Assembly: GCA_044226015.1 (NCBI GenBank)
Contig: JBGAHS010000005.1
Span: 288,001 to 352,000 of the forward strand
Source: Candidatus Obscuribacteraceae bacterium
Lineage (GTDB): Bacteria; Cyanobacteriota; Vampirovibrionia; Obscuribacterales; Obscuribacteraceae
Direction of reading: 5' to 3'
DNA: 64,000 nt
A program made the translations under genes and the position numbers. This document shows, piece by piece, positions 61,001 to 62,493 of the stretch (its first letter is position 1; each line of letters begins with the position of its first letter). The notes beneath the pieces were generated by a model. The model did no database searches, was not told the DNA's origin, and worked only from the letters and a program-made list of their open reading frames with translations.

Positions 61001-61489
61001 TTAACGAATGTCGACGACTGTACCTTGCACGCGGTACGTTTTTGCTTCCAGTTCTATCGGGTTACCTATTTTGATTTTCTGCCCTTTGACTACGTAACCA
61101 TCTGCGGTGCCTAAAGTGTCTGCGCTGCTGATCGTGATTTCGTAATCATGGGCAAGCGGTTGTGAGGGGTCGTCAAATGACTTTACCGTGCCATCTTGCG
61201 TGAGAAAAGAAATTTGCTTCTTGCATTCCTTCACGTTTTCAATCGTCAAAGTGCCTTCAACGGGCTGGTTTCTGATGGTTAGAGCCGTTTGCTCGCCGAC
61301 TTTGAAGAGGTTGGGGTCTCGCGTTTTTAGCCCTGCAAAATATACGGTAATGCTAACTTTGCCTTTCGACTCGATGACTTTGTCTACACCTGCGTGGCCA
61401 GTTTGCGCCATTGCAAAACCACCTGCAGATATGAGGAGCACCAGCAAAAGGAAAAAATCGAATGGATTATAACGTCCAAGAACCTTCAT
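61001..61489 (-). CDS. DUF4330 family protein
   Basis: LGRYNPFD N-terminal TM, IRNQP, KIKIG.PIELE...Y...GTV.D. Confidence 0.8.
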   Translation of the reverse strand: MKVLGRYNPFDFFLLLVLLISAGGFAMAQTGHAGVDKVIESKGKVSITVYFAGLKTRDPNLFKVGEQTALTIRNQPVEGTLTIENVKECKKQISFLTQDGTVKSFDDPSQPLAHDYEITISSADTLGTADGYVVKGQKIKIGNPIELEAKTYRVQGTVVDIR

Positions 61490-61771: not shown

Positions 61772-62005
61772 CGCAGGGTGACGCTCCCGCTTCTTGGAGG
61801 AGTGTTCAGGACAGATATTTCAAATCTCGCCGGCCGGGGGGCTGCGCTGCGCTTCTAGCGGACCTAGGAAAAACAGAGGGGGGCCGCCATCCCCGATACA
61901 CCCCACCGTGGTGGGACATACCGGCCTCTGCTCCCAGATCCGCGCAATGGCCTGATCCAGAATGGACTACCGCCAGCAGAGCAATAGCTGGAGGAGTCAC
62001 TGTGT
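61772..62005 (-). ncRNA. Putative structured ncRNA (~235 nt), 6S-like or novel
   Basis: GC-rich nested stems; 7 stem mismatches read as G-U pairs on the minus strand only; 5' and 3' ends pair; promoter directly upstream. Confidence 0.7.
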
Positions 62006-62010
62006 ATGCT

Positions 62011-62039
62011 AATATGCCATACTTGTGTATGTCTGTCAA
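62011..62039 (-). promoter_or_regulatory. Sigma70 promoter for the putative ncRNA
   Basis: Minus strand TTGACA (62039-62034)-17 nt-CATATT (62016-62011) with extended TG. Confidence 0.75.
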
Positions 62040-62164
62040 TGGTATTTTTGCTCTATAAGCATGCAAGTACAGCCAATCTAGTTTTTTCTTGTAGCGCTTG
62101 ATGCGAACAAAGCTCCTTAAATCGCCGCACTTTGATCGAAGCTCTCAGGGAAATCCGCATGGAC

Positions 62165-62244
62165 TTGCGGACTTCCGCAAAGTCAGGGGAAGTCTTAAAA
62201 CGCTGACGTTGTATGAGTTTTGGAGCATGTGCGGACTTCCGCAC
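62165..62244. promoter_or_regulatory. Two palindromic regulator boxes TGCGG-ACTT-CCGCA
   Basis: TTGCGGACTTCCGCAA (62165-62180) and GTGCGGACTTCCGCAC (62229-62244). Confidence 0.7.
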
Positions 62245-62493
62245 TGTTTTGCGCTCCATTGAAATGGCTGTAAAGGTATTCAGAGCAATGCTTTTCAGTA
62301 AAATGAATGCTGCGAAAAGCCTTTCTGAAAAACAGCGAAATTGGCAAAGACATGACACCCGGAAAGCATTGAGCTGCAAATGTTTTAAGAATGTTTTGAT
62401 TTGCATGGGGAAACTACGTATGAGCACTGTCTAAGAAACATTCAATTTCGGTACATCCAATCACAGGGAGCAATCTACACAGGATTCAAAATC

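Follow-up and report, generated by a model that had tools for sequence, protein, structure and literature searches.

A probably SOS-induced, multicopy structured RNA family in a member of the Obscuribacteraceae

The window analysed here is a stretch of 64,000 nucleotides (positions 288,001 to 352,000 of contig JBGAHS010000005.1, assembly GCA_044226015.1) from Candidatus Obscuribacteraceae bacterium, a non-photosynthetic relative of cyanobacteria. Its minus strand carries, near a DUF4330 gene, a unit of about 210 bp that consists of a promoter and a predicted RNA (Table 1). A palindromic operator sits between the -35 and -10 hexamers of this promoter, and the anatomy of the RNA, which is shared by all copies of the unit, comprises a 5' hairpin (P1), a linker, a stem of 19 pairs (P2) that encloses two further hairpins (P3 and P4) in a three-way junction, a tail, and the word CCGGCCGG.

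Table 1. Features of the window copy and its surroundings (positions are those of the window).
Feature	Position	Strand	Remark
-35 hexamer TTGACA	62034..62039	-	TTGAC kept in 10/10 copies of this genome
Operator CATAC-N4-GTATG (here CATAC-ACAA-GTATG), palindromic, likely LexA (SOS) box	62018..62031	-	
-10 hexamer CATATT with TG extension	62011..62016	-	10/12 matches, 17-nt spacer
Predicted RNA, conserved part of about 175 nt	61830..62004	-	Start inferred from promoter
P1, 5' hairpin; variable sequence, pairing kept	61965..62000	-	Two-sided changes in 10/13 pairs, 10 copies
Linker, semi-conserved, UCUGGA-like motif	61944..61961	-	
P2, long stem closing the three-way junction	61858..61943	-	Outer four G-C/C-G pairs invariant
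P3 hairpin; sequence and length variable	61895..61922	-	Two-sided changes in 12/12 pairs
P4 hairpin GGGG-loop-CCCC, stem nearly invariant	61880..61894	-	3/4 pairs never vary
Conserved tail after P2, UAGAAG-N-GCWG-like	61847..61857	-	
Self-complementary CCGGCCGG	61830..61837	-	Invariant in 10/10 copies of this genome
Second ACUCCUCCA and GGAGCGUCAC	61778..61803	-	Private to window copy, probably outside conserved RNA
Neighbouring DUF4330 gene	61001..61489	-	Outside RNA unit; neighbours of other copies unrelated

A first-pass annotation of this DNA had described a structured RNA of about 235 nt behind its own promoter. It included neither the palindromic operator between the two hexamers nor the nine other copies in this genome. 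That promoter, TTGACA-17-CATATT, is present (62039-62034 and 62016-62011), and taken alone it is not above chance, with one promoter-like site against 2.2 in shuffled sequences. The structure holds for the core between 61950 and 61850, which folds above chance (z -3.21; 0/200 shuffles as good), but not for the whole 239-nt fold (z -0.85; 31/200 shuffles equally good), and the length has to be shortened, as conservation reaches only to the palindrome at 61830, which gives about 175 nt when counted from the inferred start. The word ACTCCTCCA does occur near both ends (61997-61989 and 61803-61795). The anti-SD-like reading of ACUCCUCCA is not borne out, as this motif occurs in 1/21 copies. For the proposed closing stem, GUGACUCC/GGAGCGUCAC, the letters are present, but the stem competes with P1, a local hairpin is preferred by the 5' arm, and 21 copies show no copy-specific pairing between 5' and 3' parts (permutation p 0.44-0.76). 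Similarly, the stem UCUGCUGGCGG/CCGGCCGGCGAGA is the best duplex in the window copy and has no fixed register elsewhere, which makes it no feature of the family, and pairing of CCGGCCGG with the 5' region amounts to a weak trend (mean z -0.69; p<0.05 in 2/21) with no fixed register. Upstream of the promoter, two GCGGAAGTCCGC palindromes lie at 62160-62245; this word occurs six times in the genome and is not over-represented, and GCGGA-NN-TCCGC likewise shows no over-representation as a repeat in the genome.

By blastn and iterated nhmmer, this genome (G000) contains exactly 10 full-length copies, spread over seven contigs, with no fragment or decayed copy at E<1, and a covariance model, R1, recovers the same 10. 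All of them are intergenic and dispersed among unrelated neighbours, and 7/10 face the 3' end of the next gene. Pairwise identity from the -35 hexamer to the palindrome is 62-87% (median 67%) among these ten, and the retention of promoter and helices by every one of them at this level of identity suggests selection on each copy. R1 further finds six copies in G007 and four in G002, both congeners, at sites different from those of this genome, and one copy on a metagenome contig, giving a total of 21. No copy is found by R1 in the other 101 genomes of the family (carriers, 3/104) or, under strict filters, in 150 genomes sampled across the class, in scans that scored 17-25 candidates per genome and may miss diverged relatives. 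With blastn and an exact pattern, relatives gave no match outside this genome, and the covariance model was needed for the others. Scanning by pattern yielded 43 stretches from 185,579 GTDB genomes and 35 from metagenomes; of all these, 10 score with R1 at E<0.001 (nine from two Obscuribacterales genomes and one metagenome contig), the remainder being chance. Viral contigs, phages and plasmids yielded no match, and 76 viral loci with the promoter pattern have no R1 match. Two sequencing runs with a small share contain no reads over the RNA and are uninformative. Tandem repeats lie directly 5' of the promoters of two copies (L039:1790-2020 and L016:4290-4700).

Comparison of the copies supports the proposed helices. 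When 20 copies are aligned to the model, an alignment of related sequences that is fitted to the structure, 31/48 pairs change on both sides (0/500 shuffles), and 90.8% are paired in the true register against 44-50% in slid controls. An independent MAFFT alignment of the 10 copies of this genome gives two-sided changes in 23/48 pairs, which 0/500 shuffles reach, and here the paired share drops from 88% to 44-51% upon sliding. Because the copies are kin, these covariation counts overstate independence. The long stem GCGGAUC.../...GGUCCGC and the CCGGUAUG hairpin of the first-pass annotation are among the elements that covary across paralogs. The outer pairs of P2 are invariant in 20/20 copies (alignment columns 109-112), and the invariance of P4 is no structural proof. 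In the core helices of the 20 copies, 99 G-U cells stand against 11 A-C cells in the structure-fitted alignment, which fixes the strand as minus, in agreement with the earlier assignment. The most conserved letters fall inside helices, and CCGGCCGG or a one-base variant of it comes after P2 in the other 11 copies.

Rfam holds nothing for this RNA family at gathering and E-value thresholds (in the window, the gathering level gives nothing, and what appears at E up to 10 is noise), and ARAGORN reports nothing at the window locus. In these searches the locus matches neither SRP RNA nor tmRNA nor tRNA, and an SRP RNA lies elsewhere in the genome. The homologue and covariation searches that had been proposed as a check gave the 21 copies and covarying pairs described above. 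The suggestion of a new ncRNA class is upheld by covariation, strand bias, a conserved promoter and the lack of an Rfam match; the element is real and uncatalogued, and is probably an SOS-induced multicopy RNA family. What is new is the RNA family and the unit, a newness that a plain decoy function would lessen. A literature search found no paper on the RNA or the box, with subscription journals and supplements (e.g., those of the screens PMC5737381, PMC8632094 and PMC6429828), which could hold the motif, lying outside that search.

The palindrome CATAC-N4-GTATG is located between the -35 and -10 hexamers in every copy of this genome. Over all copies, it has at most one mismatch in 17/21 and at most two in 20/21, with two to three mismatches in 4/21, against a background in random 73-nt stretches of 0.075% (at most one mismatch) and 1.3% (at most two). 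A relaxed promoter pattern occurs at 9, 4 and 6 places in G000, G002 and G007, respectively, and all 19 are copies of the RNA. The same palindrome precedes lexA, imuA-imuB-dnaE2, ssb, ku and a dinG-like helicase gene, as well as sbcC, a radical SAM gene, nrdB and a tyrosine recombinase gene. It is found upstream of lexA in 29/30 family genomes and in 0/30 control stretches, and LexA has both domains. The exact promoter is present in 53/103 other family genomes; among 49 such loci that were read, 39 lead directly to imuA or dnaE2 (42 with three yhcG-imuA operons included; imuA was called mostly by motif, and in three cases by weak RecA matches), three lead to orphan RNAs and four to other genes. 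The imuABC genes are described as almost exclusively LexA-controlled and as a means of tracing SOS boxes (PMC3901139). The position of the palindrome before lexA, imuA/dnaE2, ssb, ku and the dinG-like gene makes it very likely the SOS box of this lineage, and, judged from sequence, it is very likely that LexA binds it. This box differs from the cyanobacterial LexA consensus (PMC13416735). The Obscuribacteraceae thereby gain a candidate SOS box, of which the literature search uncovered no published account. When a matrix is trained solely on five protein-gene boxes, 9 of 10 RNA boxes rank among its top 15 non-coding matches; with 9 of these 15 driving one non-coding RNA family, RNA may be a major SOS output in the lineage. 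No box was found by the patterns used in the 2.5 kb around recA in this genome (L102), which points to an atypical regulon; this and the departure from the cyanobacterial consensus count against LexA control.

The sites occupied by the RNA have turned over between congeners. In a tree of all 21 rows, with none dropped and with 25-nt-scale signal from a 164-column alignment, the 10 copies of this genome form one side of a 100/99 branch, and those of G007 and G002 lie on the other. The flanking genes of 8/11 outside copies map in this genome, with no copy inside 40 kb of any of them, and at four syntenic sites the gap is shorter here by about 335-550 nt (709 vs 158, 547 vs 184, 384 vs 47 and 601 vs 266). 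The window site is without the element in the six of seven congeners that have the DUF4330 gene. The expansion is thus genome-specific and at non-orthologous sites; copies arise lineage by lineage, carry the promoter, and each stays intact. As new copies carry the promoter, a DNA-level event is likely. Among the 21 copies, no target-site duplication (p 0.73), no terminal inverted repeat (p 0.72), no match between the RNA and the DNA that flanks it (p 0.97, by a longest-common-word test that is weak for split guides of 4-9 nt) and no near-identical pair (maximum identity, 87%) were found. A MITE or other short transposon was rejected on the absence of terminal inverted repeats, target duplication and near-identical copies. 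A search that took in TnpB and Y1 gave 0/1 for the TnpB domain in this genome and no Y1 transposase in any of the three carriers (G000, G002 and G007). IS110 occurs in two of the three carriers and was not found in G007, and R1 gives no score to the two IS110 loci here.

A further feature of these genomes is a gene cluster in which ku-ligD is followed by a gene for a retron-type reverse transcriptase (RT) of 292 aa (L214:4319-9464 in G000:C4; L365-L368). The cluster is syntenic in 5/8 genomes of the genus (G000, G002, G003, G005 and G007), and RNAs with an SOS-type promoter occur in four of these five against 0/3 other congeners, a comparison of eight related genomes that are not independent. 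In the three family carriers, i.e., in three of the five cluster genomes, ku lies behind a box with no more than one mismatch. Ku itself, present in 7/8 congeners, shows no parallel with the distribution of the RNA. Retron motifs occur in the RT, its score exceeds the retron St85 cut-off, no effector gene is seen adjoining it, and it has its own conserved upstream ncRNA of about 250 nt, with no Rfam match. No profile match links this ncRNA to the SOS RNA, and the best local match between them is reached by 33/150 shuffles; a 21/25 match fails an all-against-all control and was discarded.

Our tentative reading, to which as a whole we give somewhat less than an even chance, is that of a LexA-repressed, damage-induced, protein-binding multicopy RNA. 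The RNA is very likely transcribed. LexA cleavage would free the near-consensus promoter after DNA damage, and ten loci would then make one RNA shape, with the copy number setting the dose. The invariant outer pairs of P2, the P4 stem, the tail and the palindrome would constitute a protein-binding surface, for which P1 and P3 would need only to be helices, and CCGGCCGG could possibly pair two RNAs. The RNA would act on the bound protein as a decoy or scaffold, and the promoter-plus-RNA cassette would have multiplied separately in each lineage. The most testable candidate partners are proteins of the same regulon, namely Ku/LigD, the adjoining retron RT, SSB and the DinG-like helicase. Were the partner a repair protein or the RT linked to ku-ligD, this would point the way to bacterial end joining assisted by RNA. 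Bacterial Y RNAs, which function with Ro60/Rsr, are damage-linked and tether or scaffold proteins, and in this sense they offer the closest model of how the RNA might work; unlike them, the present RNA has no tRNA-like domain and no Rfam match, and no Ro60/TROVE gene is found in this genome (92% complete).

The main rival, which is compatible with a protein-binding RNA and which we consider rather unlikely, is a selfish, non-autonomous element whose spread is timed through the host SOS box, with the RNA as scaffold, guide or template for an enzyme acting in trans. Narrow spread and site turnover between congeners are commoner for a selfish element than for a host regulator, and the patchy distribution, the single clade of ten copies, the outside flanks that map far from any copy here, the four shorter syntenic sites and the empty window site are all what such an element would leave. 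However, it would have done so with none of the marks sought in the 21 copies (target-site duplication, terminal inverted repeat, flank match, near-identical pair), with no decayed copies in this genome, with no enzyme among TnpB, Y1 and IS110 common to the carriers, and with no match in viral contigs, phages or plasmids; copying through RNA, moreover, would lose the upstream promoter. The omega RNAs of TnpB/IscB and the bridge RNAs of IS110 are structured RNAs of 150-250 nt with several dispersed copies, and HEARO-type models are in Rfam. The present family resembles them in size range, structure and dispersed copies, but has no cognate protein common to carriers, no element ends and no guide-like flank match, and here promoter and operator travel with the RNA. 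A second possibility that involves an enzyme is that the RNA is a trans-acting partner or template of the RT after ku-ligD, for example, as an RT decoy or a cDNA source for end joining. The cluster synteny, the co-occurrence of SOS-promoter RNAs with it, the box before ku in three carriers and a retron-like RT with no adjacent effector seen would fit; that the RT has an ncRNA of its own, with no significant profile or local match to the SOS RNA, that there is no fixed terminal inverted repeat, that the G-U bias indicates a hairpin selected as RNA and not as cDNA, and that the eight genomes are related and not independent leave this reading improbable. Retron msr-msd ncRNAs also consist of short hairpins followed by a long stem (PMC7736814), and in the cluster genomes ku-ligD is followed by a retron RT for which no effector is seen. 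The copies, however, have no contiguous RT and no fixed end-pairing repeats, and their hairpin is favoured on the RNA strand (G-U 99 vs A-C 11), and by these defining features (PMC7736814) a retron ncRNA was rejected.

Base pairing with mRNAs through the unpaired tail or loops, and their consequent repression, is about as improbable as a partnership with the RT. It has a direct precedent in DinR of Klebsiella, an SOS sRNA that is made from a LexA-boxed promoter and acts on ftsZ, and a semi-conserved unpaired tail and linker are available here. DinR likewise depends for its production on a LexA-boxed promoter, and it is cut out of dinI mRNA at its 3' end, needs Hfq and pairs with ftsZ mRNA (PMC10907235), whereas the window family is stand-alone, has 4-10 dispersed copies and shows no seed. 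Conservation inside helices fits protein recognition better than pairing with mRNA; in addition, the anti-SD motif occurs in 1/21 copies, and, leaving the paralogs aside, the genome offers the variable hairpins no match below E 0.03. Less probable still is a type I toxin mRNA or toxin-antitoxin RNA comparable to tisB and dinQ, which are SOS-controlled examples of type I toxins, even though the keeping of every copy would fit addiction. Type I loci share with the family that they are multicopy, intergenic and structured, with some under SOS control (PMC2887945). They differ in that no conserved hydrophobic ORF of 15-60 aa exists here within 480 nt on either strand of 20 copies, frames differing after P4, that no consensus antisense promoter is detected in 21/21 copies (by a scan that also missed 10/21 sense promoters), and that no neighbouring gene is conserved. 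Least credible of all is the divergent 6S RNA proposed in the first-pass annotation. The family resembles 6S RNA (RF00013) in being about 200 nt long and helix-rich, with a long helix, its own sigma-70-type promoter and plausible protein binding (PMC4227106). Yet RF00013 gives no match at the window locus at E up to 10, and the copies form a three-way junction with a free 5' hairpin and a 3' tail instead of the rod with a central bulge that characterizes 6S RNA (PMC4227106). The family is also multicopy, with 10 copies here, and has an SOS box. The second 6S locus that had been suggested as a check does exist as a candidate on another contig, below the cut-off: the probable divergent 6S RNA of the lineage is a single-copy sequence (L001:1501-1706; G000:C6:800550-800755, minus) with 23 bits against a cut-off of 46.4, and it is 78-79% identical in 3/4 congeners tested. 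The gene downstream of this candidate is presumably tsaE-like.

Beyond the protein-binding reading that we tentatively favour, a broader one is conceivable, in which self-propagating, SOS-triggered RNA genes seed copies without transposon ends and feed a machine of Ku, LigD and retron RT; we regard this as unlikely, and more so than the selfish element alone. If it were true, the RNA would be a dedicated part of bacterial break repair or of a damage-timed spread, and a second RNA family in G003 would be its sister class. This second RNA is rod-shaped and occurs in G003 in four copies behind the same SOS-type promoter (L081, L182, L184 and L211); it has an invariant GGCC-loop hairpin and a tail similar to that of the window family, and R1 gives it no score. 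One of its copies lies upstream of DUF4330, in the intergenic region of the window copy, on the opposite strand.

Several further observations concern promoters of this type and their surroundings. At lexA, the operator reads TATAC-TTAC-GTATG with hardly any variation in the family, and a TACTAT -10-like element overlaps it (L024, L244-L272). In three genomes (G125, G126 and G127; L273-L278), an SOS promoter is followed by a structured leader of about 130 nt, a DUF1016/YhcG nuclease gene and imuA, with two copies of the leader per genome. SOS-type promoters also stand, in single genomes, before genes for a Uma2 nuclease, a C5 DNA methylase and a ribonucleotide reductase (L074, L075 and L078), the last of which has a long leader without an Rfam match. 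Two Rpn/PD-(D/E)XK DUF4351 genes adjoin box-like sites beside sbcC and the tyrosine recombinase gene (L095 and L097), and a 496-aa gene without a Pfam match is found together with an ARPP-2 gene just upstream of the imuA-imuB-dnaE2 promoter (L021:812-3428). Finally, blastn-short output shows a 15-nt word that occurs seven times at regular steps of about 82 nt, at G000:C1:1121219-1121726.
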